Source: Cyanophora paradoxa CCMP329 (lineage: Eukaryota; Plantae; Glaucophyta). Taken from it: 64,000 nucleotides of DNA. Positions within the stretch are counted from its first letter, which is position 1. Every line of letters begins with the position of its first letter. A model generated the notes under the pieces. It saw nothing but the letters and a program-made list of their open reading frames with translations. It made no database searches and was not told where the DNA came from. The position numbers and the translations under genes are program-made. The stretch spans positions 372,001-436,000 of the forward strand of contig QPMI01000535.1 in NCBI GenBank assembly GCA_004431415.1, written 5' to 3'. Below are positions 1 to 45,255 of the stretch, one piece after another.

Positions 1-1036
1 ATTGCACGCTTCGAATAACCGAACTGGGTTCGAAAAAGCTCCTTGAATTTCGTGGCAGCCCACTCCGTCACGGTTGCATCAGTCGAATAAAATCGGCAGA
101 TCGCTTCCACTGTGCCTCGATTAAGAGATATCATGCCCTTTCCCAGTCCAAGCCGCTCTCGAATAGATGCGTAGGGTGCCTTTGCCAGCTTTTCGATTAC
201 TGTCTTCAGGCTCAGCCCGCGTGGATTTAATTTCACATACTCAAAGCATTCGAGCACGCAGTCATTCGCTGGGACATCGGGCAGTAAAGCTTGTCGACTG
301 TTCTGTGATAAAAAGGCAGTTTCGGTACGTTGCCTAGGGCGCCAGCCGCGTTATCTGCGATCAGCACTTCAATTGATGTCACTGTCCAAAAATCGTCTTC
401 CTGGTACGACATTTGAGCCGCCATCCACTGCGCAATGCGCTCATCCAGGCTCTCGGTCAAGGTCTGCAGTGCATTCTGTCTAATCTGAATCAGCTGCGTT
501 GTGTACATGTGATTGTTGTCAAAGCGGAACCGAATTATCACAAAGCGCCCTATCATCTCCGCAACGCCCAGCTGTCCGAGGATGTCAATCGTTAAATTCT
601 TGACCGACTCAGGATCAAAGTTGGGCTCAATCGCATATACATGCTTATCAAACAGCAAATTCGGATAGCGGTGATGCCTGTGAGAAAGCACACCATCTAG
701 ATCTCGTGGCACGGGAATTTCTTCAACGTCTTGAAATATATTCGGGACGTCTTCTAGTATCGCGTCCTCGGCCTGAACGGCGTTTGCGCGAGCTGCTGCA
801 ATTGCGCCGAAATGGCCTGCGAGCTGGCTTTCAAATAATCGGCGAGCTGGGCGAACTGTCCCTCGCAATCGCAGCAGTGTCGCAATATAGTTGCGAATCG
901 TGCGGCCCCAGGTCCCGCCGCTAGCGTCCGCTAGGCGCATCAGTTTGTTTCGAAATGTCCCGTGAACATATCCACGATCGTAAAGCTCTGTCGCTAAGTT
1001 TCTAAGTTCGGTCTTAAGTGCTGCAGTGGTGGCCAT
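1..1036 (-). CDS. 5' part of a probable Polinton/Maverick-type protein-primed DNA polymerase B (terminal protein + vOTU-like region); 1-nt frameshift near 279-281; runs off the window start
   Basis: Intronless ORF from ATG 1036 (MATTAALK...). Adding one C to the CCC run after LYC gives ...FWTVTSIEVLIADNAAGALGNVPKLPFYHRTVDKLYCPDVPANDCVLECFEY...GMISLNRGTVEAICRFY...ELFRTQFGYSKRA, open to base 1. The W-x-x-x-SI...LP...NDC pattern resembles Polinton pPolB N-termini (by eye). No polymerase motifs lie inside the window. Confidence 0.5.
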
Positions 1037-1147
1037 TGCAATCGCTTTCAAGAAGAGGGACTGAAATTATTTTCGGAATTCAGCGCAACAATCTCTGACT
1101 GTCAGATAGACTGAGAGGAACCTTTAAGCCATAGCTCAGACGTTCGC

Positions 1148-1582
1148 GACTTAGGACAAAAGTTCACGTCGGCGTTCGCGACTTTGGACAAAAGTTCACG
1201 TCCAAAATCCTCAAGCATGCAGGCGCACCCCCACGCATGTCTCCCGCAATCTAGCCGCTAATATAGCCTCAATTACACTATAAGAGACGACTAGGACAGT
1301 TGTTAGCCAATTCGGGCGGCGTTCTGAAGTTCGTGACTTTGGACAAAAGTTCACGTCCAAAATCCCCAAGCATGCAGGCGCATCCCCACGCATGCGTGGC
1401 ATGATCAAAGCGCTAGTATAGCCTCAATTACACCACAGGAGACTACTAGACTACTTGCTAGCCGATTCGGGCGCCGTTCTGAAGTTCGTGACTTTGGACA
1501 AAAGTTCACGTCCAAGGTCGCCTAGTGACTTTGGACAAAAGTTCACGTCCAAGGTCGCCTAGTGACTTTGGACAAAAGTTCA
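1148..1582. repeat. Six dispersed copies of a ~24-bp motif GACTTTGGACAAAAGTTCACGTCC, within 155-bp and 37-bp duplications
   Basis: Copies start at 1148, 1180, 1335, 1490, 1527 and 1564 (the last is truncated). Each has an internal ACTTT/AAAGT inversion. Confidence 0.9.
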
Positions 1583-1592
1583 AGAGCAATCT

Positions 1593-2164
1593 CTAGGCCT
1601 TATCGATCTGGCTATCCTTATCACTGTCAGGCTTGATGATCTTCGAGATCTCTCCGCGAATGCGGCGTGCAAGTTGAATGTCCTTCGGCATGATAGTGAC
1701 GCTGCAACGGAAAACGATCAGAGGATTGCAGGATATGACAAAAAGCAAGTTGGCTCACCGTTTAGCATGAATCGCGCACAGGTTAGCATCTTCGAACACT
1801 CCCACCAGATAAGCCTCGGCGGCAGTCTGGATCGCCAGCATGGCGTGCGACTGGAAGCGCAAGAGGGGATTAATGTCCTGAGTGATCTCGCGAACGAGTC
1901 GCTGGAATGGCAGCTTGCGAATCAGGAGATCCGTGGTCTTCTGGTACTTGCGGATCTCGCGCAACGCCACAGTGCCTGCAATCGTGATAATTAGATGAAA
2001 GCGACGGACGCACAGCTGCAGGGAATCCGTTGCTTACCTGGGCGATAGCGATACGGTTTCTTGACCGGACTAGCAAGAGGCAGCTTCACCTTGACTACGT
2101 TCGGCTGCTGACGTTCAGCGTTGCCCACAGTGCGCCTCGTCGGGTTGGCCTTCACGCGCGCCAT
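1593..2164 (-). CDS. Divergent histone H3 variant (3 exons)
   Basis: Exons 2164-2038, 1975-1759 and 1701-1593 with GT-AG introns of 62 and 57 bp give [150 protein letters not shown]. The H3 fold is unmistakable. Confidence 0.95.
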
Positions 2165-2777
2165 GTTTGCTGCAGCTGCTTTGTGCTTCTAGAAGGTTGC
2201 TGCTGCTCTATACGTGGGGTACTCGTACTAGTACTAGCAGGGGGTAAATTATGCAGGCTGCGCAGCGCGTGCACGTGATCGTACGATAGGCTACAGCTCC
2301 GCGCAGCGTTGTGCACACTGTGCCACGGTGCTCCTTTTTCGACGCATGCGCACGTGTTTTCTGGAGTTTTTTGGCGGTTCGGTTTCAAGTTGTTTCTTGC
2401 ACGTGTTTTTTATTAGGTCTGAAAAATCTGACTGCAAGCATTGGTCGGTTTTATTTGCATGCTGCATGTAATATATGTATATGTCGGGGACCCAGCTGAT
2501 CATGATCGCGAGCCGCGCGTGTTCGGCCGATTCGGTGGGGACTCGGTCGGTAAGTTGGGGAACTGCTACAAGTCTAGATCTAGACTCAGACTCTAGACTC
2601 ACTCAGTGTGACTCTAGCACTGCACTGCAGTACCAGGCTACTACCGTAGTACCAGGCTACTACCAGCTAAGTACTAGTCTAGCTAGCGACCTTCGTGCCG
2701 CGAGTTCTCTACTGAATCGATTTGCATGAATTCGAAATGAACAATGCGCAGAGCAAGTATTACCCGAATCACCGTAA

Positions 2778-3206
2778 GCTGGCATAAAAGTGAAGTATTA
2801 GATTTTAAACTTCTATGCTGGCATAAAAGTGAAGTATTAGATTTTAAACTTCTATGCTGGCATAAAAGTGAAGTATTAGATTTTAAACTTCTATGCTGGC
2901 ATAAAAGTGAAGTATTAGATTTTAAACTTCTATGCTGGCATAAAAGTGAAGTATTTGATTTTAAACTTCTATGCTGGCATAAAAGTGAAGTATTAGATTT
3001 TAAACTTCTATGCTGGCATAAAAGTGAAGTATTAGATTTTAAACTTCTATGCTGGCATAAAAGTGAAGTATTAGATTTTAAACTTCTATGCTGGCATAAA
3101 AGTGAAGTATTAGATTTTAAACTTCTATGCTGGCATAAAAGTGAAGTATTAGATTTTAAACTTCTATGCTGGCATAAAAGTGAAGTATTTGATTTTAAAC
3201 TTCTAT
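2778..3206. repeat. Tandem array, 11 x 39 bp (GCTGGCATAAAAGTGAAGTATTAGATTTTAAACTTCTAT)
   Basis: Exact 39-bp period. Copies 5 and 11 share an A>T variant. No spacers. Confidence 0.98.
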
Positions 3207-3721
3207 CCTACTAGGCTACTATGCTGGCCGTGAGTTCGGCCGATTCGATGGAGATTCGGTTGGTAAGTTGGGGAACTGCCGCAGCATTGAGTCCATTGAC
3301 TCAAGTGAATCGATTTACAGGCGGCCGCTGGCAGGCTGTGGCCGTTAACGTTGGGCAGCCGCTGAGCCTGCAGCTGGCAGGCGCCGGCGTGCCGCGGCAG
3401 ACTGTGCATATGCGCATGTTCACAGACTCGCTTCCGTAGTACAGAGCTGTCAACACAGCAGCTGCAGCAACCGCTCCATCCCGGAGTCCGTTTGCACATT
3501 CAACGGTAAGCTAACATGAAAGGTTGTGCATGCGGGGCCTGATCATGAGATGAGTCGCTATGCATGCAAGCAGAACTAATGCATATATACATGCTCACAG
3601 CTGCAGGTTGCTCACAGCAACCATATACGCGTGAACGCCACACAGGTGTGCATCTTGACACTATATATATATCATACGCAGTGTGCAGCACTCTCATCGA
3701 TCTTACGTCGGCATGTGCAGC

Positions 3722-5165
3722 ATGTCTATCAAAATCAGAGAACCGAATGAGAAGAAAACACGGCACTTTGTAACATTTGAGCTCGTTGATCGTAGAGAGT
3801 GTGACGACGACGATATGACGAAAGAGGAATGGGATGAGTGCCTGTGGAAGACTCTAGATGCTCTGTTTTACGGCCCCAGTCTTATTCGCACGAAGATCAA
3901 GTTTGCTCAATTTGCAGTATTCAAAACGACAACAAATGATGTGTTCCAAATTAAGGTATGCACCCATGCGAATTGAACAATGTAAATTGCGCCCATGCAC
4001 ACTGTTGCATATCACTCTCATTTACTTGACGTTTTCAGGGATTGATCACGACGAATACTAGTTATAATTGTACAGTTAAGCACATGAAAGACGCGTTGGA
4101 GATTCAGTTTGCAGATGATGGCGATTATTTCGGGCACACGCCCAATTACATTACTCCTCTTTTTGGGAAGACGGCTCAAAAAAAGGAACTGGAGACGCTA
4201 AACGTCAAGTCGAATAGATTGTCGAGCTGGTCAAATGGATCGGTGCGCAATGTACATGTATGGCGCGCACTGCATTCTGGCTCTAATGCTATTATAGCTG
4301 GACAACCAGGGAAATAGAAGATCCCCTGCCGAAGTGCAGCTTCGTGATAAAGTTCGACGTTTCCTCCGTGGTGATTGCATTCTCTTTTCTCACAATCATG
4401 TCTTGATTTGCATTTGCACAGAGCCAAGGAAATATGCGGATTTCATAGAACGGTTTCCACTCAAGTCTCGCGCTCTGGCCGGCCAAGCTGTGTTTACATG
4501 TGACAGGGACCGGAAAGCTCTATTTCTAGAGCTTTTTCCCAAGAGGAAAACCTACACAAAGATGTATTTTGTCACAGGTCTTGCTTTCACTCAAATTCTC
4601 CGACTGATAATATATATCTTCACACATTGTCAGGTGGCTCCCCAGAATCCCTGATTCAAAAGCTGATCGAGACCTACCCAGAGTCGGAAGTTTGGAAAAA
4701 ACCTGGCACGGTGTGCACTTATCGTGATAAAGTCTCTTTTATCTGATGGCAATGGTCACCTAGGAACGCGCTGGGTTCTGGGATGGCTACAATGGGGAAT
4801 CGTACATTTTTATCCCCAATTTTAGGGGTGAAATCTCCTTGAGCAGTATTATAAATGCTTGTTCTCCTCTTTCAAAGGCAAACTTGCCCATAATGTATGG
4901 TAACGAAATTTGGTTAGCTTCTACTCTTTTTATTTTTACAAGCGAAATTCACGTACGAGAGGTAATCGGTTATCGCTCCGGAAGTAATTACGTTACAAAA
5001 GCTGCATATCGTGATTTTAAAGATTTTGCGGCATGTTCCGGTGGTGGAATTATCCGTATTAAGAATATCGAAAAGCTTCTTAAGGCACGACAGGCCTATA
5101 GAAATGTAAAGAGAGATCTCGTAGTTGAATCTCCTGATGACATCTTGAAGATTTTTGATGACTAA
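3722..5165 (+). CDS. Spliced CRESS-DNA-virus (circovirus-like) Rep homolog with degenerate HUH and SF3 helicase motifs
   Basis: GT-AG introns at 3956-4038, 4243-4297, 4371-4421, 4578-4633 and 4711-4763 give one open frame. It includes ...SNGSLDNQGNRRS...RKTYTKMYFVTGGSPESLIQKLIETYPESEVWKKPGTERAGFWDGYNGESYIFIPNFRGEISLSSIINACSPLSKANLPIMYGNEIWLASTLFIFTSE..., collinear with circovirus Rep (QGxRSD; GPPGCGKS; WWDGYxGE; IDDFYG; KGG; ITSN). Confidence 0.8.
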
Positions 5166-5425
5166 GTTAGCTAGGTTCTTGTGAGCCAAAGGCTATGCAA
5201 GCTAGCTTGACGCTTTCCAAAATCAGCTAGGTCTCTTGTGAGTAAAATACTACGCAAGCTAGCTGGCGCTTTCTCCTGAGGCCGCAGCAGACCGCGCGCA
5301 AGCAACCGGGGCCCCAAGTACACCCACACACGCCCTCCTAAACTCAGTTCCGATATCTCCCCAAACAAACGCCTAATCAACACGCCTACTCTTTCTCACT
5401 AATTTCGCTCATCGATCACGCTTAT

Positions 5426-5493
5426 AGGGGTGGACCCCTGATGGTAAAACCAGACTTTGGGGGGCGGTCTGGTTTGGGGGGGGGTCCACCCCT
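5426..5493. other. 68-bp fold-back (hairpin or mini-MITE)
   Basis: AGGGGTGGACCCC pairs with GGGGTCCACCCCT; inner AAACCAGAC pairs with GTCTGGTTT. Confidence 0.8.
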
Positions 5494-5743
5494 TTACAAC
5501 AGACGGATCAGGCGCTAGCCGATCAGGTATTTGGATCGGTATATGTATATGATAGTATCGATCTGGAATTCGAAGACCGTCGACGTCCGACGGTCGACGG
5601 CATATAACATCAATTGCAACTTGCAAGTTAGGATGTCCATGCGCATGCCATGATCGTGATGCGCGTACGCGTGGATTTAAATGCGCATAGTATCGGCTGT
5701 TCGAAGCTGATCACGAGCAGCTATAGATTATTCAATGAATTAC

Positions 5744-6052
5744 CTCGGAAAAGACGATGATCCCGTTCCCGTCCGTATCAAACTCGTTGATCATGTTTCT
5801 GCACAGCCGCCGCGGCCGCGGCGCATTATTAATTGCACGTCACCACACAAGTAGGAAGCCTAAGGAATTTCGAATGCATTCGCGAACGCATACGTACTGG
5901 ATCTCGGCGTCCGTGGGAGTCTGGCCGTAAGATGCCATGACCGCGACGATTTCGGCTTTGGTCATGGAGCCGTCTCCGTTGGTGTCGAAGTTGCTGAACG
6001 CATCCGCGATCTCAGAGATCTGCTCTTCGGTGAACTGCCCCGTCGATGCCAT
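5744..6052 (-). pseudogene. Calmodulin-like EF-hand gene, N-lobe only (downstream exons not found)
   Basis: MASTGQFTEEQISEIADAFSNFDTNGDGSMTKAEIVAVMASYGQTPTDAEIQ, intron, NMINEFDTDGNGIIVFSE, then a GT donor with no recognisable next exon. Confidence 0.7.
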
Positions 6053-7976
6053 CTGGATCTGCGCACAAACTCGAAGCGGTGAGCGCGCGCGATCGCGAGC
6101 CAGCTGCAGCGCCCCGACGCGCATGCGCCTAGGCCTGCAGCTGTGCCCTGGCCTGGCCAGGCCGACCGCGTGCGTATACGTATATACGTATTCGTATACG
6201 GGCACGGCGCGGGCATGCGCACGGCCGATCAGCGCACCGGTTCGAAGCCTTAAGCTAAAACGCGAACGCGCTAGGGTGACCCGGTGTCCTTCGGAATACA
6301 AGTTCTGTCCGTCGGACAATGAGCGCTGAAGCTGGATGGTGTCGAGCTCGAGCACACTGTGACCGTGGCGTGTACTATAACTAGGAGCGCTATATAGCAA
6401 GCTGCACGCGCTAGCGATAGGCACCGCTAACGCTCCTAGCATGCACACGCACCTCCTACGAGGGATCCTGGGCCGGGAAGCGCGCGTGATCGACCGTGCA
6501 GCGTGCGCATGCGCGGGACGCGGCGCTGAGTCGGCGGCGCCGGCGCCGGCGCCGAATGGGCGCGCCGGCGCCGGCGCCGGCGCCGGCGGTACTTCCGGAA
6601 GTTTTTTCTGCCGGATCATCGGATCTGTCAAAAAAAGAGCCCCCCCCCCCTTCATCCACTTGCCAACTTGCAAAAAAAACGAATTCGAATATCGGCCGCG
6701 GGCCAACTCGGACGGTAAACTCGGCGGGCCAACTCGGACGCGGGAACGTTGACTTGTAACGAGCAGATCTAGGCCCGATTCTAGAGTCGCCGGCGCCTCA
6801 CGCCGAGCTCGAGGGACACGCGTACGCAGAAACCGAGACCGAGAATTCGAAGAGGGCAAGGCCAGGAGCTCGAGGAGAGACATCAATGTTTTTTTAAAAA
6901 TGCATTTGCGCCGAATCAATGCGCGTGCGTACGGACATTGTCGGACAATACTCGCTCTTCATAATCCTACTCTTGCTGCAGCAATTGCAAGTATGTTTGG
7001 GAATCATCACCATCATTGTTCATTTCCGACCACAAACGTCAATTTTCAAGCGAGGCGTTACATTCAACAGCAAGGCGATGCATTTGAATATTCGGACTTA
7101 TGTTCGAATGTTCCAGCCTTTTTACTGATCGGGATTCGGGAGCCACAGGCGCACGTCTGCTTCGGCATCGAGCGGGGGCGGGGGCGAGGGCGCGCCCTCG
7201 CCCGCCCCGAGCCGCACGCCGCCCTCCTGCTCCAGCAGCAGCGCGAGCTTCCCCGACATCACCGTCGCCCCGTCGAACTGGCGCCCGTTCGCGTTCCCGT
7301 GAGCGGCGGCCCGTGCTCAGGGGGCGAGGAAGGGGGGATCCAGATCTAGAGGGGCGGACCTTGCAGCCGTGGAACTCCTGCGCCCGCTTCTTCCCGATGC
7401 GCCTGGCGCAGAAGACGCGCTGCGAAGGGCCTTGCGCATCAGCGGACCGGCTCACATAAAGCTTCGAAGAGGCGGCGCGGATCGCACGGGGAGGGTCGAG
7501 ATGGATACGGTCCCGTCGGGGCGGGCTGCCGCCAGCAGGCCCCGACCGCCAAGCGCGTCCTGCGCGCGCACGCGCGAGCATCAGAATACGCGCGCGCGGT
7601 ACGAGAGAAATGCAAATTAAATCTATTTAGCCGGCGCACCTCTGAAAACGCGTAGCCTTTGAGTTGTTCGGACTTTGCTTCGGCCGCGGCCGCGGGTCCT
7701 TCCTAAGTACGGTACACGTGGTCATGATCAGCGGCTAGTTAACGTTTGGCGGGCTGCGAGCGAACAGCAACGAAATAAGAATTCCCCGCACCTCGGAGGG
7801 CGCGTGTCCGGACGCCGAGGCCGCTGGGGAGGCCGAAGCCCAGACCACCTCCTCCTCGCCGTCCGGAGCGACGGCGCACACTCTCGTGTCAACCTGAGAC
7901 GAGATTCACGCGCGGCGCGGGACGGCCCGCGCCGCGCCGAGAGATAGCCTAAGGTGGCTTAGGTGTGGCGGTAGAG

Positions 7977-10900
7977 TTAAGACTCTGCCCTGTCGCGCGA
8001 GCGCGAGCTGGCGAACTTCAGCTTGACTTGGCCCCCGGCCGCGGGGGCCTGCAGCCGGCCACGGCCCTCCGCACGGGCGCCCGCGAGCTCGACGCCGGCC
8101 TGCATGTCCCAGACGAGGAGCGAGCTATCCACGTCGGCGCTCCCCGTCACCACCCGCCTCCCGTCCTGCCGCCACCGCCATCGCCAGCCCCGCGCGAGGT
8201 TCCCAAGTCAGTTCCCGAATGCAGAGTGCACGTGGTTTCGTCGAGGTCGATCTCCCGCCCCCAGAGCTCCGGGGATCCTAGAAAGCACGTACACGCACTA
8301 TCGCTGCCTATCGCGCGCGCCACGCCGCTCACCGGCGAGATCGACAGCGATGTGGCGAGCATGCTGATGGTCCGGCCCGAGGCCGACAGCCGCGGCTTCC
8401 GCAGCTGCACGCCCGTCTCCAGGTCCCACACCCGCAGCGTCTTGTGGTCGCACCCCGTCACGATGTACTTGCCGTCCTGAGCCGCGCGTAAGTACGCGTA
8501 ACGCGTCCTTTATGATTCGTATCATCCGCAGATGTCTCTCGAACTCACCGGCGTGATAGCGATCGAAGATGCCATGCTCTTGTGGCCCTTCAGGCGCCGC
8601 AGCTCGGCCCCGCTCTCCAGGTCCCAAACGCGCAGGGTCCAGTCCCGGCTTCCCGACACGGCGCGCCTCCCGTCCTGCGGTCCGTCCGAAAATTAAACCG
8701 CGCGTCAGCGTTGGAGGCTTTCCTGCCGTGAGATCCCGGCCCGGCCCGCACCGGCGAGATCGCGACGGAGAGAACGGGGCCTTCGTGACCCGTGATCACC
8801 CGCAGCTCCGCCCCGCTCTCCAGGTCCCACAATCGCAGCGTCTTGTCGCCGCTGCCCGACAACGCGCGTTTCCCGTCCTGCGCGGCCCCGGGCCCCCGCG
8901 TCAAACGTGGTCGAATGCCGCACACGCTTCTTTTTGCCGAAATAATATCGAGTTACAGAGGCTCTCGGTCAAGCTGCATCACACGCACCTGCGTGACTGC
9001 AACGGAGACGACCGTGTCGTCGTGGCCCGTGAGCGTCCGCAGCTCTGCCCCGCTCTCCAGGTCCCAGACTCGCAGCGTGTTGTCCGCGCTCCCCGACACA
9101 GCGCGCAGCCCGTCCTGCGACCCGAAAATCCAAGTAAATTTGAAGAATGTGCAATCCTCCATCCGCTTCGGCTTTTTAATAATTATTCAAGCTTGAAGTC
9201 TTCGACCGTGCCAGGGCCCGCAAAGTCTCGAACGCACCGGCGAAACCGCCAACGAGCGGACGTACTCGGTGTGCCCAACAAGCTGCCGCAGCTCCTCCCC
9301 GCTCTCCAGGTCCCACAGACGCAGCGTCTTGTCCTCGCCCCCCGACAGTGCGCGCTTCCCGTCCTGCGAGCGATCCGAAGAGATTACAATCGCAGACAGG
9401 CCGGGGCTATTCATATGCATGGCACTCTAGCACTCCGTGCCTCTCGCGCACCGGCAGAACCGCGACGCAGTACGCATCCCCGTCGTGACCAGTGAGCCGG
9501 CGCAGCTCGGACCCGGTCTCAAGGTCCCACAGCCGGAGCATCCTGCCCTCCTTGCTCCCCGACACGGCGCGCTTCCCGTCCTGCAACGTGCACAAGGGCC
9601 GAAGGTCAGCGCGAGCTGTGTCGAAAACGCTGAGCTTAATTATGATCTTGAAAATGTTAAACGAAAGTATAGGCCCCAACTCCCTAAGTCGGCCTCTATC
9701 GGCCTTGAAACGCTGGCCGGCGACGTTTAGGAAGACGCCCGTCAGCGATGTTTAGACAATGGCAAGCCGTTCTTGCATTCGAACTATTCGCAGTCGGTCT
9801 ATCCGGGCCCTCTATCGACGTCTCGGTCTCTCTTCAACCGCGGGTCGCGTCCGCGCACCGGTGAAATTGCAACCGACCAGACGTCGCCTTCGTGACTCGT
9901 AACCTGCCGTAGCTCCGCCCCGCTCTCCAGGTTCCACAATCGCAGGACTTTGTCGTCGCTGCCCGACACGGCGAGCTTTCCGTTCTGCGGCGCGCCTGGT
10001 CAGCTTTCGCGCCTGCACCAGCGAAGAAGCGCGCCTGCTTCCAAAAGACATCGTTCTAGATCTAGGCCTCGCGATCGGCTGCTAGTCTCAAGCGTTCGCT
10101 CCCAATATTCGACTTCGAATCTCTCATTTCCCGTACCGGCAAGACCGCCACCGAGTTGACGGTGCTCTTGTGGCCGGCGAGGCACTGCAGCTCCGCCCCG
10201 CTCTCCAGGTCCCACAGCCTCAGCGTCTTGTCGCCGCTCCCCGACAACGCGAGCTTCCCGTCCTGCGGCCGCCATGTCAGCACCATAGAAATGAGAGTCC
10301 ATTCATTTTCGCACGCACGGGCAAGAATGCCAATGCGAAGACCCGATCCTCGTGGCCCGTGATCACCCGCAGCTCCGCCCCGCTCTCGAGATCCCAGACC
10401 CGCAGCGTCTTGTCCTTGCTTCCGGAAAGCACACGCGTTCCGTCCTGAGATCCGAGGCCCGCATCAGAAACCAGAGCATGCGCAGCCTCCAACGCGCACG
10501 CACCGGCGAGATCGCCACCGCGCGGACGGACCGCTTGTGGCCCACAAGCACCCGCAGCTCTGCCCCGCTGTCCAGGTCCCACACGCGAACCGTCTCGTCC
10601 TCGCTGCCCGACACGGCGCGCTTTCCGTCCTGCGAAGCGACCAGATTCACAACCGGAGGCTGGGCTTATTAGACTCTCTCCTGGCCGCATCCACGCACCG
10701 GCGTAATGGCGACGGACCAGACGTCTTTCTCGTGACCGGTGAGCCGACGCAGCTCCGAACCGGTCTCCAGGTCCCACACCCAGAGCGTGTGGAGGCTGCC
10801 GGACACGGCGCGCTTCCCGTCCTGCAGCCGAGAAACGCTCGCGATTGATGGGCAGCGAGGGCCCGCCGACGGGGAGCGAAACACAGAGGCCTCCAGCTCA

Positions 10901-13900
10901 TTTAACCGGCCTCTCTTAGTTCGTTTGGGCTGCTAATTACAATTCGATGTAACGCTTCTTTTCTGGCGCCGGCGATTTATGAATGGTCATCAGCTATATA
11001 GATGCGTTATCCTGGTCACAAATTTATAGACGCCCATGACGAGTTCGGCGCCTCCAGATCCGTGGCCGTAGAACGTGAACGCTTCCGAACAAGCGCAAGT
11101 CACGCGTGCGCACCGGTGAGATCGCGACTGCATGGACGTCGTCTATATGGCCCGCAAGCACCCGCAGCTCTGCCCCGCTGTCCAGGTCCCACACGCGAAC
11201 CGTCTTGTCCTCGCTGCCCGACACGGCGCGCGTTCCGTCCTGCAGCCAACTCATTAACAGAGTCACCCGAGCCAAATTAAACACTCGATTTATGGGAGGC
11301 CTAGGAGATATGAGATCTTTTCCCTTTTCCATTCAACGTTTCGCCCCCGAATGACTAAGCATGCGCACCGATGAGATCGCAACCGACCAGACGTCGCCAT
11401 CATGACCCTCCAGCCTGCGCATCTCCGCCCCGCTCTCCAGGTCCCACACCCGCAGCGTCTTGTCGTCGGCGCCCGACACGGCGCGCTTCCCGTCCTGCGT
11501 GGCGAGCAGCGCCAGTCAGGACGGATCGAAACACCCTTAAATTTTCGTGAATTGTGGCTTGCACCGCACCGGCGTCACAGCGACGGCGTTCACGGACTTG
11601 GTGTGTCCGTGGAACGCCGGGTGGAGCGTGACGCTGCAGCCAGTGAGGACAGAGCCGCGGAGGTCCGCCCCGCAGAGGTTCGCTTCGAGAAGGGTAGAGC
11701 CGGTGAGGTCCGCCCCGCGCAGGTCCGCCCCCGCCGCTTCCATCCGCTGCAGGTCGGCTCCCGGCACTCGAATGCCCCACAGCTGGCTGCCCGCGAAGCT
11801 GAAGCCAGCTGCGAAAAACCATGAACGTGATCAGCAGTAAAACTAAAAGCTAAATCAGAGCCGATCGCACCGCGATTGAGGATCGTGATGGCGTTCGCCG
11901 AAGCAGTGATGTCCCCCGGCGTCGCGTCCGCGCGACGGCTCTTCTTTATTAAGCGCAAAAGTTCCTGTTGCCATAAAAATGCATATGGGAGGGTAAGTGA
12001 TGATCATAAATGTTCCCCAAAGCATGATAATTTCTCGCTTGCGCACGTTGCGGTAGTTGACATCGGCGGTGCAATGGTCAGCGAGGAACTGAACGATCTT
12101 GGGCTCCTTTGTCAGCAATCTGATCGCGAGCCGCGCCAGCCGGTCAGAACACGCAGCGCGGGATTCGGAACAATAAAAAGCCCCGCGCAAGAACTCGCAC
12201 CGCAAGTGCAGAAGGCTCGGCTCCGCTCGCATGCTGGCTGCTCCGCTCGCGCCGATGCTTTGCACTAGATAGACGCTCTGCAACCTTGCGCGCGGCCGTG
12301 ACCTAGCCTCTCTCTCAATCGCCTGAGACAGACGATGGTCAAAAACTTGTAGGACAGGCGCAATTTACATGCAAAAAAGGATGAAGCACCGAGCGAAACG
12401 CGTCAGAACCATCCGCGTACGCGCCCTCCGCGACGAAATACTCGAGGAGAGTCTGTCGCTGGCTGTCAGACCGACAAGCTACAATTTTCAAGGCCTCGAA
12501 TCAATATTCGAAGGCGGACCTTGTGGAGGAAGCGAGCGGCGGTGCCGCCGTCGACGTCCCGCGCCTTCGACACGCGCATCGGGCAGTTCTCGCGGCAGAA
12601 GACGCGGACGGGGTCCGTCGCGTCGGAGAGGAGCTTGACGCAGCGCTCCAGGTCCGCGCTCGACGGGCTCCGCTGCGCGGTCGCGGTCGCGGGCGCGGCC
12701 GAGGACGGAGCGGCATCCGGGCCTGTCGCCGTCGCCGTCGCCTCGAGACCGATCGACATCGGGATGTACTTGGCGCTCTTGGGCTTCTTCTGCGGGCAGA
12801 GAACTTCCGAGACATTCGCCTGCGCGCGATCGCGAGTAATCATTAAATTGCAATTCAAACAGCGCCGGCTTCATTATCGTTATATCATTGCAGATCCGGT
12901 CGTACTTTGAACATGGAAGTGGCGAGGTCCTTGCAGAACTCGAGGCAGTAATCTTGGAAATCATCCACCTCCCAGTCTCTCAGAAGTCCTGATCGATCGT
13001 GCGAGCACTTTAGCTTTAAGACCAGAGACCGACCGCGGTATTAAGACGTCTCCACACCGTTTTCCTTGGCCGCCGCCGTCGTGGACTTGTTCCATTGCTG
13101 CCTAAACCAACGCTGCGCACGCGCATGGACATTAATCCACACGCAAATATAATGTTCCAAAGCGAGAACATATTCATCGTCGTGTATAGCAGACCTCGAC
13201 GAATTTCTGGTAGAGTTCGCGGATGGTCAAGAAGTACTTGGAGGCGACCTTGACGCTCCCGCCCCGCGTGCGGAAGAGCTCCTCCTGGCTGCATCGGGAT
13301 CGCAGTGCCGGTAAGCCTATGTGAACTGCGGCGAGCGAGCATAGGCACGCGCATGAACATGTATAGCACACCGGCTCTTCAAGATTCTTGGCAGTGATTC
13401 CACCACCATGCTGCGCGTCGAGGCGGTTGCAATTGTTTCTTAGCGAGAAGATTCCCCCACGCGAACTGAGAACCAGCGGGAAGATACCTGAGCGTGAAGG
13501 GGTTCTCGATGAGCGCCGCGGTGCCGGGGACCTGCGCAATGCGAGCCACGTACTCCTCCACGGTCCACGTGCAGTCCGGGTCTCGCTTCCCCTCCGGCGC
13601 GCCGGGCCCGCGGGCGCGAATGTACTGGCCGATGTAGTCCTCGACCTGCCGCCCGACCGCGAACGCTCAGCGTCGGCGGGCGCGATCCAGAATCGCTTAA
13701 GCCGACGGAGGCGGCCTCGGGTACCTGCCCCGCATCGAATGGGTGCGTGCAGACCTCCTCCAGCGGCTCGCCCGCCGCCGCAAATAGCGACTGCAGCAAG
13801 GATCGGGTATAACACGGCGCAAACGTTGGATATATACGAGCGCAGCGCACGGGATAGTCGGACTGGGCGGCGAGGTACGCCGAGCGGCAGGTGACGACGG

Positions 13901-16900
13901 CCGCAGAAGCCCACTTGCCGAGCTCGTTGCCGCCGCCGCCGGCCGTCCAGAGGGCGGGCGGGCGGCCGCCCCCGCACTCCAGCTCGTCGTACGCGTCCAG
14001 CAGCAGCACCAGCCCGCGGCTGCGCAAGCAAACTGTGAGGGGCGGCAGAGGCCAGGGCGGGCAGGCGGTCGGGGCCGGCGGTGCCTCTCGCGCAGGGCCG
14101 GCAAGTCGGCCTCGGGCAGGCCGAGAGCGCGGGCCGCCTCCGCCCGCAGCCCGCCCGCCGCCCGCTCCCTGGAGAGGTTCGAGAGGCGCAGCAGGCACGT
14201 GACGGGCAGGCCGCCCTCGCCGGCGGGCGGCCGGCCGCGCGCCTCGGCCCACTGCGCGCAGGCGGCGCGGTGGAGGTGCGCGAGGAAGGTCGACTTGCTG
14301 GAGCCGGGCTCCCCGCGATGAGCACCACGCGGCCGGCGCCGGCGGCGGCGCCGCTGGCGGGGACGGCGGGGGCGGTGCCCCGGGCGGGGAGGCGGCGGCG
14401 CAGGAAAGCGGCGACGTGGCCGAAGAGGTCGACGACGACGCGGCGCGCGACGTCCGCCGTCGCCTTGGGCGGGACGTACAGCGCCAGGGCCTGCGCGGCG
14501 TCCTCGTCCCCCAGCTCCCCCCGCGCGTACTGCGCAGTTGCAAGAGCCGGCGTCAGGATCGGCTCACGATCGTTGGAGGGGCGGGGAGCGCGCTTTTAGG
14601 ACGGCTTCGCAAAGGGACCGGTCCGGGGCGTCTCGCGCGAGGCGAGCGATCGTGTCGCGAACGAGCGCCGAGGATCCGCGAGGTGCCCCGGCCGCACCGA
14701 GCGCCTTCGGGAAGCGCGGAACGGGTACAGCGTTCTCCTGTCAGGCGGTCACGATCATAATCAGGGGCAGGGCGGGAGGAACGGAGGCGGGGCGTCGATA
14801 TCGCACCGCGGACGGCACGCCCAGGAACTTGCACGCAGCGGCGTCGGATGCCCTCTGCGCGGCGCCGCCGGTCGCCCACATGCGCTGCAGCGCCGCCACG
14901 GCCGCCGCCGCCGCCGCCGCGTTTCCGCAGCCGTTCAGCGCCGCCAGGTTGGCGAGGGCGCTCGCGACGACGCCGAGGACGTCCGCCTTCCCTGCCGCCG
15001 CGGCCGCCTCCGCGAGGCGCTCCATCCACTCGACGGCCCCCGCGCCAGCGCCCCGCGGCCTTCGCCGCCGTCGGCCTCGGCGACCTGCGCACAGAGCGCC
15101 GGCGCCGATCGGCGGACGCTCTCGAGCCGCGAGGCGCGCCGGGCCGCGCGCACCGAAAAGAGGGCGGCGCAGAGGGCGGCTGCGGCCTTCGGGTGGCCGG
15201 CGGCGTCGGCGAGGGCGCCCGCCTCGAGCTCCGCCTCGAGCTCCGCGAGGTGGCCGCCCTCCGCCAGCGCCGCCAGCAGCCGGGCCACCCGGTACCTGCC
15301 GCCCCGCGTCGGTGATCATGAGCCCCGCCGGCCGGGGCTTCAGCGGAGGCGGCGGCGCAAGCTAGAGGGCGCGGGACGGCACCAGCACTTCTTCTTCTGC
15401 GGGCCGCCGACGCCGAGGATGAGCCTGAAGTCGGCCCAGAATTCCCGCAGGTCGTCCACCAACTCGCCCCCGTCGAGCACCTCCTGCGCTTCGGTCGACC
15501 GAAGGCGAGGCGCGGGGAGGGCCGGGCGAGGACGGCGCGGCACCTTCGCTTTGACGGCGAGGTCGATGGCGGTCGTGACGCCGAAGCTCGAGACGCCCTC
15601 CAGGACCACCTTCCCCGCCCGGTACAGCTTGTGCACCACCCGCCCTGCCCGCGGCCGGCCGGCCCGTGAGTGCGCGCGGGACGCCGGACAAGACGCACAG
15701 ACTCACCGAAAGCCTTCGCGCGGCCGAGGGCGTCCTGCAGCGGGTCGTAGTCCGAGCGGGCGGCGGCGAGGGCCTGCCGCGCGAAGCTCGCCGCCGCCTC
15801 CGCCCGCCACCAGCCGCAGCGCTCGAATCCCTTCAGCAGCGCGTCGAGCTCCCGCACCGTCCCTTCGTAATCCACCGCAGGCGCTGCGAATCGCGCGACG
15901 TCGACGGGCCGCTGTGCGCGCGGGCAGGGCGGCGGGGCACCGTCGGAGTCGAAGCCGGCGCCGTCGCCGCGGGCCTCGACGGCAGCGAGGACGGCCGGCA
16001 CGAGCCGCAGGTAGGACAGCGCGTCCACATCCCCCGGCGAGGCCGCCGTGACGCCCTTCAGCTGCGACCGCGGGCCGCCGCGCGCGTCACGCGGCGGGGC
16101 GGGGCGGGCGGGGAGGGGCGGGGCGGGCGGGGCGGGGCGGGCGGGGCGGGGCGGGGCGGGGCGGGGCGGGGCGGGCGGATCCGGATCCGCACCTGCTCGA
16201 TGCAGAACTCGACGAGGCGGGCGCGGTCGGTGGAGGTGAGCGTGCCCCGCGGCAGCCGCCCGAGCACGTCCGCCAGCGCCCCGACGCGCGCCGGCGGCAC
16301 CCGCGCCAGCACCGTGCTCCTCCCGAGCGACAGCAGGACATCCAGGAGCTGCGAACAGGCCGCGCCGCGGCGTCAGTGGCGGGCCAGAGACTTCGCGCCG
16401 GCGAGCAGGGGCGGGGCGGGCGCAACGCTGCGGGAGAGCTCGGCGTCGCCCGAGAGGACGACCGCGCAGACGTCGGCGAGCGCCGCCGGCGAGTCCAGCG
16501 TCTGCTCCGCGAAGACCTCGACCGCTGCGCGCGTTCGCGTGATCACGAGGGCGCCCGCTTGAGCTTGAGGAGAGGCCCGGGCGGACAAGCGCGCGCAAGC
16601 GCATATGCATGCGCACCAGCGCGGCACGCTTCCTTCGTCGCCTCCAGCGCCTTCGTAACGTCCCCACCGTACTGCCTCCGCACCAAGGGAAGCTCCAGAG
16701 CGAGCCGCAGGGGCGCGTCGACGTCGGGCCCGCTGCCCGCCCGGCCGCGGGCGGCAGCCGCTGACGCCTCCCGGAGGAGCCCGCAGAGGCCCGCGAGCTG
16801 CGCGACCGACGAGGCGTCCTCCAGCGCATTCAGCTTCTTCAGCTCGTCCGCCCCGCACACCCACGCGAGCCCCGCACGCCCACGCGCGGCCGAATGGGCC

Positions 16901-18241: not shown

Positions 18242-21200
18242 TAAGGAGGGGGGTAGAGTCGAACCGCTGCGCGGGGTCCCTCCGCAGCATGCGGGAGAGG
18301 ACTGAGGCGAGGTGGGAGGAGATCGGGAGGCGCGCGGCTGCGCGGGCGCCCGTCAGGAGGGGCGCGGCGGGGTGGGGCGGCGCGGCGGGCGGGGCGGACG
18401 GGGCGTCCAGTCGCAGAAGTACTCGTACGTGGGTCGCGCCCGCGTCAGCAGCTCCACGCACGTCGCCGCCAGGCTGCCCCCAGGTCGGCGGCGCCCCGCG
18501 GGGACGGGAGAGAGGGGGGCTAGGGGCACCTGTAGAGGTCCGAGGAGGGCGTGGGGTACCCCCGCCGCTGCTCGGGGTCGCTGTAGGCGTAGGTGCCGAT
18601 CTGGGGGCGGCGGGTGAGGGGCGGGGGCGGGGGCGGGGCGGGGCGGGCCGCGCCATGGTGGCCTGCTCCCAGTCGGGCCGCGAGGTCGTCGAGAGGCCGA
18701 AGTCGACAAGGTAGTAGTCCCCTGCGGCCGCCGTCAGGAGCGGCGGCGGCGGCGGCGGACGGGCGGGGGGGCGGGGCACCGTCGTCGCCGGCGATGATGT
18801 TCGATGGCTTGACGTCCCTGCGGCGCCCTCAGCGCCGCCCCGCGCCCCGCCAGGGCGAGCGCGACGCGGGGGGCGGCACCTGTGCAGGATCCGCTGCGCG
18901 TGCACGTACGAGAGCGCGTCCGTCATGTCGTCCAGCAGCCGCAGAATCTTAGGGCAGGGCCGCGCGGCACCGTCAGCCACCGGACAAGGGTACAACGACA
19001 GACTGTGCGGAAAGGGGGGTACCTCGGACTCGTGGAAGGGTCCCGATCGGTCCTTCATGATCCGCTGCAGGTCGCGCCCGGGTACAAAGTTCATCACGTT
19101 GTACAGGTCCCCCTGGGAGGTCGAATCAAGAGGGGTACGGTGACGAGAGGGGGTACGGCCTTGCCTGCCACCGGAACGAGCCGAGGAGCTTCGGCACGCA
19201 GGGGTGGTCGAGGTTCTCCAGGACGCGGCCCTGGGACGGGGTACCGCGTCAGCCTCTCGGGGGTACCGGCACCGGGGAGGGGTACACCTCCTCGAGGAAG
19301 AGCTCCGCGGCCTTCTCGATGTGCTCCTCGTTGCCGTTCTTCTCGAAGAACGTGAACTGCGGGGGTACGGCGATGAGGGCGGGGTGCGACGAGCTCGGGA
19401 GGATAGAAGCACCTTTTTGACGACGCATTGCTTGCGGGACGGTGAGTGGAGATCGATGGAGACCTGAGCCCTCGAGTTGGCGGCGGCGCGACGGGACGGG
19501 CGGCGCGGGGGGCGGCGGGGCGCACGAAAGCGGTGCCGAACTCGCCGCCGCCGACCCGCGACACGGGCCAGAAGCGCCTGTTGATCGCCTGCAGTTCGCG
19601 GTGCGTGAGTAGGGGATGCAAGATAACGGCGGCAGCAGGGATGCTCGCCAGCGGGGCGCGGCAGAGGGGGCACGTCGCGTCGATCGCGTCGGCCTCGGTG
19701 GCGCAGCCGCCGCCGCGCTGGTTGCAGCGCATGCAGATCGACCTGCGCGGCCGCCTCCCCTCAGAGCTTCGCTTCGGGATCGCTTAGAGGCGGGACGCAC
19801 GTCTCGGCGAGGGGCCCCGCGCTGGGCGCCGACGCCAGGTTCGACGCCATGCGCGGCACCGACGCGTACAGCGAGCTGCGCGCCCCCCTCAGCTCAACTC
19901 CGATGCGCATGTAAGATCGAGGGGAGGGGTCGGGCGTACTTGGCGTGGGGGAGGCTGCCGGGCGTCGTCGTCGGGCTGCTCGCCTTGATGGCCGTCGACG
20001 AGGGCGGCTGCGCGGGGGCGGGCCGATCAGGGAGGGGCGGCAGGCCGCCGGCGCGCCTCCTCCGTGTCGGATTGCACCCTGAGGCCGCTGGGGGCGGAGG
20101 CGAGGCCGCTGGGGGCGGAGGCGAGGCCGCTGGAGAGGCCGACCTCCGAGTCTGTGGGCGCCAGCGCTGCGGGGCGGCCGTCCCGGCTTCAGGAGGCGGG
20201 GCGGGGCGGGGTGGGGCGGGGCGGGGCGCGTCGGCCCTCCCAGTCTAGCCGCAGGCCGGAGGAGGAGCGACGGCACGCACCGGAGGAGCTGACGCGGCGC
20301 CTCTCTGCGCCCCTGCGGTGCGCGCCGACGACCTTCCACGCCACAATGGCCGCCGCCAGCACTGCGCAGCCTGAGCGGGGGCGCGGGACAGGTGGCGGGG
20401 AAAGGGGTACAGCGCACCCGCGATCGCGACGCCGCCCGTGACGACGCACGCGACGATGACGACCATCTGCGGGAAGCGGGGTGCGCGTTGAGCTTCTCGG
20501 GGGATGGGAAGGTGTCCGGGTACGCGCGCACCGTCGAGTCCGAGGCGGGCGGCGCCGGGGCAGCGGGCGTGGTGTTGCTTGTCGGTGCGCCCCCCGCGGC
20601 CCCGGTGCTCGTGCCTCCCGCCGTCGAGGCGCCCCCCGTGGACCCGGCAGCCGTGGTACCCCCCGTGGTTCCGGTGCTCGCGGTGCCCCCTGCAGAGGTA
20701 CCGGAGTTCGACGTAGATGTACCCCCCTGCGGCCGCTCAGGGCGCCGCGGAGCTCCAAGGCGAACCGAGGGGGCGGCCGCACCGCAGCGGAGGCGGAGGA
20801 GGCGCCGGCGACGGTCTCAACGTTGGCGGGGTCGAGGAGCGTCAGTGAGCTCGCGGAGCTGAGGAGGACCGAGTTCGCGTTGGTCCCTGCACCCGCGTGA
20901 CGTCAGCCGCCGCGGCTCCGGCGCTCGAGGCGCGCGAGGCTTGGGGCGGGGTACCGCTCTGTCCGAACACGACGGCATCGGCGCTGATGGGGGGGGTCCC
21001 GCGCCGAAGGTACTGGACAAGGCTCTGGGTACAGGGCAGCCTGGTGCAGTCGTTCGCTGCGCCGGCGTCGGCGGGGGCGAGGCGGGGGGCGCCGGGGAGG
21101 GGGGGGGGGAGGGGGGGGGGGGGGCTCCACGCACGGGTGTTGACTATGTTCACGACGGGTCCGACGGTGAAGCTGACCCCCGGTTCGCTGGGTTGGAACC

Positions 21201-21782
21201 GGTACTGCCCCACCTGCGCCGGCGCGGGTCGAACGGAGAGGCGCTCGAGCGAAAACTGATAGCGCCCGGCGGCCTGCGGGGCGCCCGCTCTGCCGGCACG
21301 CACCGCCAGATCTTGGAGCTGGACGGTCAAGTGGCCCCGCTTGTGCTGGACCCCCGAGATCGTGCGGAAGCAGAAGCGGCTGAGCGTCGCGTCACCCCGG
21401 ACCTTCCCGTCGCTGCTCGCCCCGAGGTAGCACTGCGCGGGGCGGGGCGCCGGGCGACGGGCGCCGGGTCGGCAACGGCGGGGCTCGGGGCGTGCGAGGC
21501 GGCCCGCGGCGGGCAGACGGGGCGCACCGGGTAGATGGAGAATCTCTCCGGGAGGCCGCCCGACGCGTCCCACGTCAGGTTCAGGAGCACGACATCGTTG
21601 CCGGGAATCACTCGCGTGACTGTGACGTCCGTGCCCGCCGCCGCCTCCGGGAGCAGCGCGAGCAGCACCGCCGCCGCGACAAGAGCGACGGCCGCTAATC
21701 GCTGTCCGTGCGCCCAGCCGCCGGCCGCGCGACCGTGTGGGGCCGGGGCCGGGGCCGGCGGCCGCGGCGCAATAGCTGTCAT
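17863..21782 (-). CDS. Receptor-like Ser/Thr kinase: signal peptide, ectodomain, T/G-rich stalk, TM helix, Pro-rich linker, C4 zinc motif, Pkn2-like kinase
   Basis: Hydrophobic signal LAAVALVAAAVLLALLPEAAA; TM MVVIVACVVTGGVAIAG/AVLAAAIVAW; CMRC...CPLC; GGGEFG, CVVKK, H/RDVKPSNII, DFGL, GTYAYSDPEQ, SDLY, RFES. Splice phases across 19940-19740 are compatible with a single gene. Confidence 0.75.
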
Positions 21783-22235: not shown

Positions 22236-23583
22236 ATGGCTTTCGTAGCGGCTGCACCGCTCAACGTCGCTGGCGCTCGCGTACGTGGCCCGAGCCTCAG
22301 CCTTCCCCCGCGCACCCTGCTGGCCCGGCGGACTGCACGATCGGGTGAGAGCTCTCTATCGTAGTAGTATCTACACGACTGGCGCCGCCGGCGTCCGCAC
22401 GTGACGCGCTGACGAATTCGGCGCGTGCTGCGATCGATATCTGCAGGCCCCGCCGACGCCGGCGCGGCCGAGCGTGTTCACTTCACCATTCAAGGGTCCG
22501 CCGCGGAGAGCGAGCGTCTGCGGCCGTCCGCAGGCGCCGCCTCTCGTGTCGCGCTGGGCTTGGCCGCGGGCTTTGTGGCCGCCGCTCTGGCGTCCGCGCC
22601 CGTCGCTGTGGAGGCAAAGGCCATCTACGGTGCGAGTGCCCTCGCGAGTCGCCCGGTCGCGGACGCCGCTTGCCGCGCAGGCCTGCCCGCCCTCCGCGCG
22701 GCCCTTCTAACCGGTACCTTCGCCCCGCGCCCCGCGCGCAGACCACGTGGACATCCTTGAGTTTGATTTCTCGAACAACAAGGAGAACCTCGTAGGGGGC
22801 GTCTTCGACAAGTGTGACGCCTCCGTGCGCCCCGCCCGCCGCTCGAAGCCCGGCGGCCGCCCGGCAGCGCCGGGCCTGACTCGCGCGCGTGGGCGCGCAG
22901 GGCGCGAACTTCAGCCACACGGACATGTCCAACGCGACTGTCTCCTACGCCTCCTTTATTGACGCGAACTTCGAGGGGACGAACCTCACGAACGTGCGCC
23001 GCGCCGCGCCGCCGCCGGCCGGCGGGGGCACCCCCCCCCTCCCGCGAATTTGATCCCCGGGGTACGGGTCGGACGCACAGATTCTGGGGGACCGGAGCAA
23101 GTGGGAGGGGGCCAACCTCAAGAACGCCGTCTTCGCCAACGCGCTCATGACCGGTGCGCGGCGCCCGCCCCGCGGGGCTCCGAGGCTTTCCGGCCCCGCC
23201 CCGCCCCGCCCCGCCCCGCCCGCCCCGCGGAGCCCTCGGTCCCGGCCCGACGGCCCCGCGCGCCCCCGCAGGCGTCGACTTTGCTGAGGTCGCTTCGATC
23301 GAGGGTGGGTGCCCCGCGCCCGCCGCTCGCCGCCGCTCGCCGCCTCAGGAGTCTCACGGGCGCCTCGCGGCCAGGCGCCGACTTCACGGGGGCCATGCTC
23401 GACCAGTACCAGTACCAGGCCCGGCCCCCGCCCCGCCCCCAGGCCCCGCCCCCGGAGGCCTAGGCCGCCCGAAGCCTCGAGACTGAGCTTCGTGGGCGGC
23501 AGGTCCTCTGCGACCTGCCCTCCGCCAAGGGCGTGAACCCGACGACGGGCGAGGAGACGCGCGCCAGCCTCGGCTGCGAGTGA
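22236..23583 (+). CDS. Plastid thylakoid-lumen pentapeptide-repeat protein (TL17/TL20.3-like)
   Basis: MAFVAAAPLNVAGAR transit start; hydrophobic lumen signal ending AVEA; repeats ANFSHTDMSNA, ANFEGTNLTN, ANLKNAVFANA, ADFTGAML; C-terminal LCDLPSAKGVNPTTGEETRASLGCE typical of this family. Confidence 0.9.
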
Positions 23584-24134
23584 TCGCGGCGCCGAGCCGG
23601 CCGAGCCGGCCAGCGCGCGGGCCCCGGTTTCCTGAGGTTCGGCGAGCATTTCCTCGTTTCGTTCGGCTTTCACGTGCACCACGCTTTTCTCATAATCAGC
23701 TTGCTTCTTTTCCCGTCCTGGTTTTGGTCGATCTAGATCTCAATCTGGTCTAGATCTTCATTCTTCTTCTTGGAAACACTATTCGATTATCCTGTTCAAT
23801 TCACGTAGTGACGGCTTTGGGCAGGATTCTGGAGTCTATAGCTATTTGAGGTTCAACTGTTCATCTTAGAGATTAGGTCGTAAATCGCAGCTGCAGCTTG
23901 CAATTGCAACTGCTTTGTGAGTCGAGCACGCCGCGGCGCCCACGATACTGGAAGTTTAATATTTGGGAAACGTTAATTTTAACTTGGCCAGTGTGCAAGC
24001 GCGCGCGCGCGAGCTCGAGCGGCGAGCGCGCGGCGAGTCCAATTCGAATTCTGGCTGCGGCCGCGGGTCCAAGTCAGGATTGGTCAGGATTGGGGTACGT
24101 GTTCGTGGCCCGGCCGCAGCTGCTGGGCCCCGCG

Positions 24135-44689: not shown

Positions 44690-45255
44690 CGGACCGCCCC
44701 AGCGGCCCCCCACGAATCGCGCCCCCGCTCCCGCCGCAGCTGCTCCGCTGCCCCTCGCCGACGGCGCAATTCGCCGCCGCTGGACCCACGCTCGCTCTCT
44801 CCAGGCCCGCCGCCCGCTCCGCAGCCTTTCTGGCGGGCCGCCCCAGCGGCCCCCCACGAACCGCGCCCCCGCTCCCGCCGCAGCTGCTCCGCTGCCCCTC
44901 GCCGACGGCGCAATTCGCCGCCGCTGGACCCACGCTCGCTCGCTCCAGGTCCGCCGCCCGCGCCGCAGCCTTTCTGGCGGGCCGCCCCAGCGGCCCCCCA
45001 CGAACCGCGCCCCCGCTCCCGCCGCAGCTGCTCCGCTGCCCCTCGCCGACGGCGCAATTCGCCGCCGCTGGACCCACGCTCGCTCGCTCCAGGTCCGCCG
45101 CCCGCGTCGCAGCCTTTCTGGCGGGCCGCCCCAGCGGCCCCCACGAATCGCGCCCCCGCTCCCGCCGCAGCTGCTCCGCTGCCCCTCGCCGACGGCGCAG
45201 TTCGTCGCCGCTGGACACACGCTCACTCGCTCGAGGTCCGCCGCCCGCGCCACGC
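44690..45255. repeat. 144-bp GC-rich tandem repeat, ~4 copies (also ~53710-54276)
   Basis: AGCGGCCCCC anchor at 44701, 44845, 44989 and 45133. Confidence 0.9.

Follow-up and report, generated by a model that had tools for sequence, protein, structure and literature searches.

The locus analysed here lies within a 64,000-nucleotide stretch of Cyanophora paradoxa DNA (the window) and raises the question of whether a 39-bp tandem array ahead of a Rep-type gene is a set of CRESS-type replication origins or a sequence of another kind. An earlier note on this DNA had read the units as near-miss origins that might act as a binding platform or decoy for Rep. Its description of the letters was accurate: the extent of the array and its 11 units were recovered in a tandem-repeat scan (Table 1), the exact nonamer was found 14 bp ahead of the array, AAGTATTAG was present in nine of the 11 units with copies 5 and 11 differing, both inverted arm pairs were found in the units, and the Rep homolog placed some 500 bp downstream proved to be real but remote, its predicted ATG (3722) lying 515 bp past the array.

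Table 1 Positions and main characteristics of the features discussed in the text.
Feature	Position	Strand	Characteristics
Terminal-protein-like ORF	233..1039	-	Predicted little-finger/PAD fold, residues 127-232; remainder off window
Further tandem repeats	1141..1582	+	Periods 32, 155 and 37 bp
Histone H3 variant	1593..2164	-	2 predicted introns (62 and 57 nt), 150 aa; divergent to Rep-like gene
18-nt motif	2167..2184	-	Just upstream of H3 start; inverted repeat at 3453-3470, upstream of Rep-like gene
51-nt direct repeat, left copy	2516..2566	+	Flanks array; 88% identity
Exact CRESS-type nonamer, AAGTATTAC	2755..2763	+	No enclosing stem; 14 bases 5' of array; changed in paralogous contig
39-bp minisatellite (array)	2778..3206	+	Period 39, 11.0 copies, 99% matches, 28% GC (tandem-repeat scan)
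51-nt direct repeat, right copy	3229..3279	+	Flanks array; 88% identity
CRESS-type Rep homolog	3722..5165	+	6 predicted exons, 381 aa, no stops; catalytic motifs lost
Multicopy right-hand segment end	5169..5502	.	Strong hairpin, arms 5423-5438 / 5481-5496

All 11 copies of the array matched the unit consensus with at most one mismatch, which occurred in none of 100 shuffles, and every unit had the core GCTGGCA-N7-GAAGTATT together with weak dyad arms. Copies 5 and 11, which stand six units apart, carried an identical variant whose single difference, A>T at unit position 23, breaks the core (TTTG) in two of the 11 units; its recurrence suggests a recent block duplication. Because the units are 99% alike, one variant recurs six units apart and GCTGGC microhomology is found at both array ends, growth of the array was probably recent and proceeded via slippage and unequal exchange. 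The 11 copies count as one event, not 11. The array centre (2899-3105) was uncovered by the contigs of the DNA runs, as expected for collapsed repeats, and the copy number of 11 is the window's figure only. Reading frames in the array were repeat translations without start context, a search of Rfam over 1000-5700 gave no matches, and prefixes of the array unit gave none among viral and metagenome contigs. By itself, the array is an ordinary-looking minisatellite.

Judged by nonamer, stem and loop, the array does not qualify as a CRESS origin. The exact NANTATTAC nonamer was found in none of the 11 units (nine end in G, and two also lack the +1 A), its final C was absent from all units seen, and one exact copy lies outside the array, where it had no enclosing pairs. 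The unit stems as drawn had energies of +0.5 and +0.1 kcal/mol, reaching about -0.6 kcal/mol at best, as weak as the earlier note had judged them. The short 5-bp A-T stem (+0.5 kcal/mol) leaves a 13-nt loop and the longer stem a 17-nt loop, and the free fold of the unit pairs GAAGT with ACTTC, thereby burying the motif in a stem. As controls, 63 viral loci were fetched by a Rep motif, of which 56 had Rep-length ORFs and 51 were distinct; both HxQG and Walker A were encoded by 39, among which 26 contained a nonamer with full flanks. The median forced-loop energy of the 26 was -7.4 kcal/mol versus -0.6 kcal/mol for the array units, with at least eight enclosing pairs and an energy of -6.4 kcal/mol or lower at 17 of them; eight were weaker than -4.5 kcal/mol, some of these probably being chance nonamers.

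Published CRESS origins, as described in the available part of 10.1101/2020.09.01.278671, have stems of 9-11 bp and loops of 10-13 nt, and Rep touches positions +1 and +2. Since, in the same available part, several geminivirus Reps tolerate single substitutions, the missing final C alone does not exclude Rep binding. The locus resembles the origins of circoviruses, nanoviruses and geminiviruses in that a nonamer-like core precedes a Rep-type gene, an exact nonamer occurs once and inverted arms enclose the core in each array unit, but differs from them in its eleven tandem copies, in the final C missing throughout, in stem energy and loop length as given above, and in having no active cognate Rep. 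As to a circular form, the evidence consists of contigs only, which show presence and not absence, and the three joints listed were all forward skips. That the units are working rolling-circle origins of an endogenous CRESS replicon, a reading that draws on the position of an exact nonamer upstream of a Rep homolog, is hardly credible and largely refuted, given that this nonamer is stemless, that five introns are predicted in the Rep gene, whose product is missing the His, Tyr and Walker residues, and that the surrounding element looks protein-primed (see below).

A decoy function, in which the array would titrate an active Rep provided in trans, either by a CRESS virus during infection or by an active paralog not seen here, also strikes us as very improbable. 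The array would offer ten potential sites in one place, and the Reps of some families accept single substitutions (10.1101/2020.09.01.278671, available part); against this, Reps cleave the single-stranded loops of hairpins, which the unit stems would not extrude, and six-frame translation of the window revealed no active Rep (E 0.78 for the best match apart from the homolog).

How much of the nonamer likeness is due to chance was estimated from shuffled sequences. ANTATTAC occurred twice in the window versus a shuffle mean of 1.82, and two or more occurrences were reached in 56 of 100 shuffles. Exact nonamers are expected locally at about 0.11 per 1092 bp of non-repeat intergenic DNA, or about 0.01 per 100 bp. 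A nonamer with at most one mismatch was present in 26-34% of shuffled units, and the window contains 122 one-mismatch sites on both strands. Such a near-nonamer with an enclosing stem as stable as that observed was found in 6.7% of 6000 shuffles; with arm and loop thresholds that were picked after the sequence was seen, it lay within arms of five or more pairs and a loop no longer than 13 nt in 3.8% of shuffles, and within arms of eight or more pairs and a loop no longer than 20 nt in 0.55% of 20000. Chance cannot explain the array itself but suffices for the motif alone; the motif together with its arms is moderately unusual. The caveat that the match might be fortuitous in AT-rich DNA stands for the motif (26-34%); the motif-in-arms geometry pointed out at the same time is uncommon in shuffles (0.55%). 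The likeness of the array to the nonamer is probably largely incidental.

These frequencies also bear on an alternative in which the array is a functionless product of local 39-bp slippage and resembles the nonamer by chance in a unit of 72% AT. Such a neutral minisatellite is possible, although we lean against it. It agrees with the 99% identity of the units, with the ease with which near-nonamers arose in shuffled units (26-34%) and recur across the window (122 sites), and with a segment prone to tandem duplication (repeats of 32, 37, 155 and about 57 bp, and the 51-nt flanking repeat); the 37- and 155-bp units, the two tested, had no nonamer-like site (two or more mismatches). Against it stand the rarity of motif plus arms and a nine-letter island that one diverged paralogous unit retains in register.

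This unit was found among contigs of the two DNA runs. The contig loose ends listed included at least two at the array, each present in both runs. In one contig with a paralogous upstream flank, AAGTCTTAC stands in place of the exact nonamer. In another paralogous contig, from runs X2 and X12, GCTGGCA is followed by a diverged unit with 0/7, then 9/9 (GAAGTATTA) and then 3/14 matches (by eye); GAAGTATTA is exactly in register, the left arm is gone and A is the last base. For a run of nine among 12 matches in 30, p is about 3e-4, in a unit that is one 30-letter loose end and, X2 and X12 being of the same organism, represents one evolutionary event. This unit gives the strongest indication of a possible selected core, GCTGGCA-N7-GAAGTATTA; as its arms were lost, what was retained is linear and not a hairpin. 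The expectation that paralogous elements keep the motif was borne out in that GAAGTATTA stayed in register in one diverged unit, but not for the arms, which were lost, or for the exact nonamer, which was altered. One paralogous array is followed by a different flank, and only a single contig covered the Rep gene at 80% likeness. A contig joint from 2659 to 5176, weak with 25 letters on one side, would drop the array and the Rep gene together.

The divergent starts of the H3 variant and Rep-like genes are separated by a gap of 1.56 kb that holds the array. The H3 variant has a strongly changed N-tail with VKKP kept, a loop 1 of normal length and a 15-residue C-terminal extension, and related contigs suggest that its gene is present in a few copies. 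The 18-nt motif found ahead of both genes is possibly a shared 5' or promoter element. In the RNA-labelled runs X20 and X21, positions 1-6200 were mostly uncovered (4 and 6 of 30 bins with cover), which has no bearing on expression; the cover in X20 consisted of one 233-base piece at a depth of 2 and of conserved H3 pieces.

We tentatively favour the reading that the array is a multimerised double-stranded site for a transcription regulator in this shared divergent promoter, likely within a Polinton-type arm. A linear bipartite site in the promoter of the cargo cassette would have been recently multiplied by slippage and unequal exchange, and the multiplied site would bind its regulator as duplex DNA, the binder presumably being a regulator other than a nicking Rep. 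This reading is consistent with the island kept in the diverged unit, with the unstable stems and with the location of the array between divergent starts that have a motif in common, whereas the core broken in two of 11 units and the rarity of motif plus arms (0.55%) argue against it. Being independent of Rep, it treats as coincidence an exact nonamer that lies 14 bp off, beside the window's only Rep homolog.

The identity of that homolog was examined by several approaches. The gene is predicted to comprise exons at 3722-3955, 4039-4242, 4298-4370, 4422-4577, 4634-4710 and 4764-5165, with five GT-AG introns of 83, 55, 51, 56 and 53 nt. The top two matches in a PDB search (177,635 sequences) were circovirus-type Reps with E values of 0.10 and 0.18, and in the Atlas the last exon lay close to a helicase cluster of the Cressdnaviricota (0.92, third rank), 24% of whose members carry PF00910. 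Once the selection motif was excised, the protein scored z 3.1 to its left and 2.6 to its right (1/200 shuffles each). Similarity was found to the oligomerisation and SF3 helicase regions of CRESS Reps, the part from the oligomerisation region to Walker A giving z 2.7 (0/200 shuffles), whereas the nuclease part, aligned by motif spacing, was no closer to the control Reps than shuffled sequence (z 0.2, 89/200 as good). HMM E-values of 5e-6 and 2e-9 were rejected as circular, the controls having been chosen by WDGYNGE; the score fell to -1.4 once this motif was masked, and the masked HMM search gave no signal. HMMER with the last exon over 1.84 billion proteins yielded no matches, Pfam and PHROGs contained no relevant family, and four protein searches or scans turned up no relative. 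In viral and metagenome contigs, the last exon had only short motif-level matches (4/46 and 1/366), and its single-sequence model reached a pLDDT of 32. The likeness to a CRESS-type Rep is remote but consistent.

At the motif positions, catalytic residues were replaced throughout. Motif II, where HUH/HUQ is expected, reads FQIKG without the HxQ histidine; motif III reads LETL without the catalytic Tyr; Walker A reads GGSPES in place of GK[ST]; Walker B reads IFIPNF without the acidic pair; motif C reads FTSE without Asn; and the arginine finger position reads AYRDF. Walker A and the RR finger were defined after the available part of PMC12981564, whereas the control Reps served as reference for Walker B and motif C. 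Having lost the histidine of HxQ, the catalytic Tyr and the residues of Walker A and B, the protein cannot plausibly nick and is predicted to be neither nickase nor ATPase. Compared with circovirus-like (Arfiviricetes-type) Reps such as PCV2 Rep (PDB 8XMS, 7LAR), it has the same domain order, motif spacing and oligomerisation region and a region with WDGY, Walker B and motif C in succession, but differs in the replaced HxQ histidine, YxxK, GK[ST], acidic pair, motif C Asn and RR finger, and in its five predicted spliceosomal introns. This loss of nicking and ATPase residues, together with the unstable stems, the free fold that pairs the motif, the stemless exact nonamer altered in a paralog, the arms lost in the diverged unit and the final C present in no unit, speaks against the description of the units as near-miss origins.

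Because the frame stays open over 381 codons despite the loss of every catalytic residue, a retained non-enzymatic role of the protein is suggested. In viruses, Reps attach to iterons and thereby repress transcription of their own genes; our literature search for Rep autorepression found no paper. The platform proposed in the earlier note can be revised along these lines, with the dead Rep domesticated as a DNA-binding regulator on an origin-derived array upstream of its own gene, which we consider unlikely overall. The intact spliced ORF would then reflect selection for the non-enzymatic role, the Rep-like oligomerisation-to-Walker A part (z 2.7) would be retained, and the kept core corresponds to nonamer positions -7 to +1, with an exact nonamer only 14 bp away where about 0.01 per 100 bp are expected; the weak joint from 2659 to 5176 would also lose array and Rep gene jointly. 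Several observations speak against such a binder: no likeness of the DNA-binding nuclease part to the control Reps could be detected (z 0.2, 89/200), the exact nonamer is altered in a paralog, a paralogous array has another downstream flank, and a single contig spans the Rep gene at 80% likeness. Iterons, moreover, are not known to coincide with the nonamer.

The cassette of H3 variant, array and Rep-like gene sits in a GC-poor multicopy segment. Outside the array, the GC content of 233-5502 was 43-55%, versus 65-70% beyond. Many related contigs with substitutions, from two DNA runs of two studies, covered 1-1656 and 5176-5589, where summed depth, which is not a copy number, was several-fold above that of the Rep gene; the Rep gene was covered by one contig without differences. 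The G/C hairpin at the right end (5414-5509) was stable (z -4.7, 0/200 shuffles). A related copy of the 5414-5509 hairpin with different flanks occurred in the RNA-labelled run X21. A Helitron was dropped as a candidate: Helitron 3' ends are a hairpin followed by CTRR, and homology here stops near 5502, before the nearest CTAG.

In the model of the left ORF (pLDDT 41), residues 127-232 matched the little fingers of Y-family polymerases with Z 6.2-7.9, including 5kt4_A (Z 7.9, rmsd 3.3, 98 aligned), 7nv1_A (Z 7.3, rmsd 3.6, 99 aligned) and 4ir1_F (Z 7.1, rmsd 3.0, 94 aligned); an adintovirus protein (E 1.4e-3, rank 2) and the mavirus polymerase (E 1.5e-3, rank 4) were also matched with this low-confidence model. 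Protein searches with the ORF gave no matches, and its Atlas score was under 0.9. Below 266 the reading goes on in another frame, where an N-D-C motif, read by eye, is vOTU-like. Near 270 (-), where the frame breaks, contigs of both DNA runs have one extra base, one of them being otherwise identical; the break is likely an assembly error. An LF/PAD fold has been reported for Polinton-type terminal proteins (10.1101/2024.03.18.585575, sections 6 and 7, available part), and the matches are suggestive of such a PRD1-like terminal protein domain. GC below that of the host and several copies per genome, which serve as a criterion for Polintons, were both found. The segment is likely an arm of a Polinton-type element; this assignment relies on a model of low confidence (pLDDT 41) whose matches stay below Z 8, and only one end of the element, near 5502, lies inside the window.

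Polintons and Polinton-like viruses (TP-vOTU-pPolB or Tlr1-like) resemble the segment in low GC, several related genome copies and a structured end, and also in the terminal-protein-like LF/PAD fold (10.1101/2024.03.18.585575, available part) if the prediction for the left ORF holds, but here the cargo consists of an H3 variant gene and a dead CRESS Rep gene, both predicted to be spliced. Replitrons, according to the available part of PMC10288648, are also eukaryotic mobile elements; they occur in algae, encode a CRESS-related Rep and have a hairpin at the right end. HUQ and the catalytic Tyr are retained in their Reps, which lack a helicase, whereas the Rep-like protein has neither of these two motifs and carries an SF3-type part at its C terminus; a Replitron, defined in that part by a Y1 Rep with HUQ and no helicase, was ruled out. 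Searches of the openly accessible literature listed no Polinton with a CRESS Rep and H3 and no domesticated spliced protist Rep. The H3/Rep cassette is absent from the available parts of PMC12220804, PMC12721341, PMC12344493 and PMC12981564, and a term search of 10.64898/2026.10.13.758929 gave no matches.

The notable part of the locus is the cassette, in which an intact, dead, intron-bearing CRESS Rep lies head-to-head with an H3 variant in a likely Polinton-type element, and which implies an earlier CRESS-type infection of the algal lineage. In the fullest scenario, an algal Polinton-type element would have captured a CRESS Rep that gained introns, lost all catalysis and now acts as a sequence-specific, oligomeric regulator of its own gene and the H3 variant via the origin-derived array; as a whole, this chain of events seems to us distinctly doubtful. 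If true, a double-stranded DNA element would have exapted an enzyme of a single-stranded DNA virus, and the array would provide a defined candidate site for its binding.

Elsewhere in the window, the host DNA is GC-rich and its introns are short. A large block at 33400-61400 consists of interleaved direct and inverted repeats with satellites of about 149, 144 and 342 bp, and four ORFs tested within it had no Pfam match; a 5.2-kb duplication (43130-48349 / 52148-57373) is 99.7% identical. Directly past the element end, 5600-6100 (-) encodes an EF-hand (calmodulin-like) protein. By eye, an intron-rich gene at 8000-16800 (-) has many WD40-like repeats and a pentapeptide-repeat-like stretch, 18400-21750 (-) holds an intron-rich putative protein kinase gene with an N-terminal extracellular part, and 24130-27750 (+) an intron-rich putative cytochrome P450-like gene. 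The gene at 22236-23585 (+), with pentapeptide-repeat-like exons, starts with MAFVAAAP, which we take to be the beginning of a glaucophyte-type plastid transit peptide, and its product is putatively plastid-targeted (by eye).
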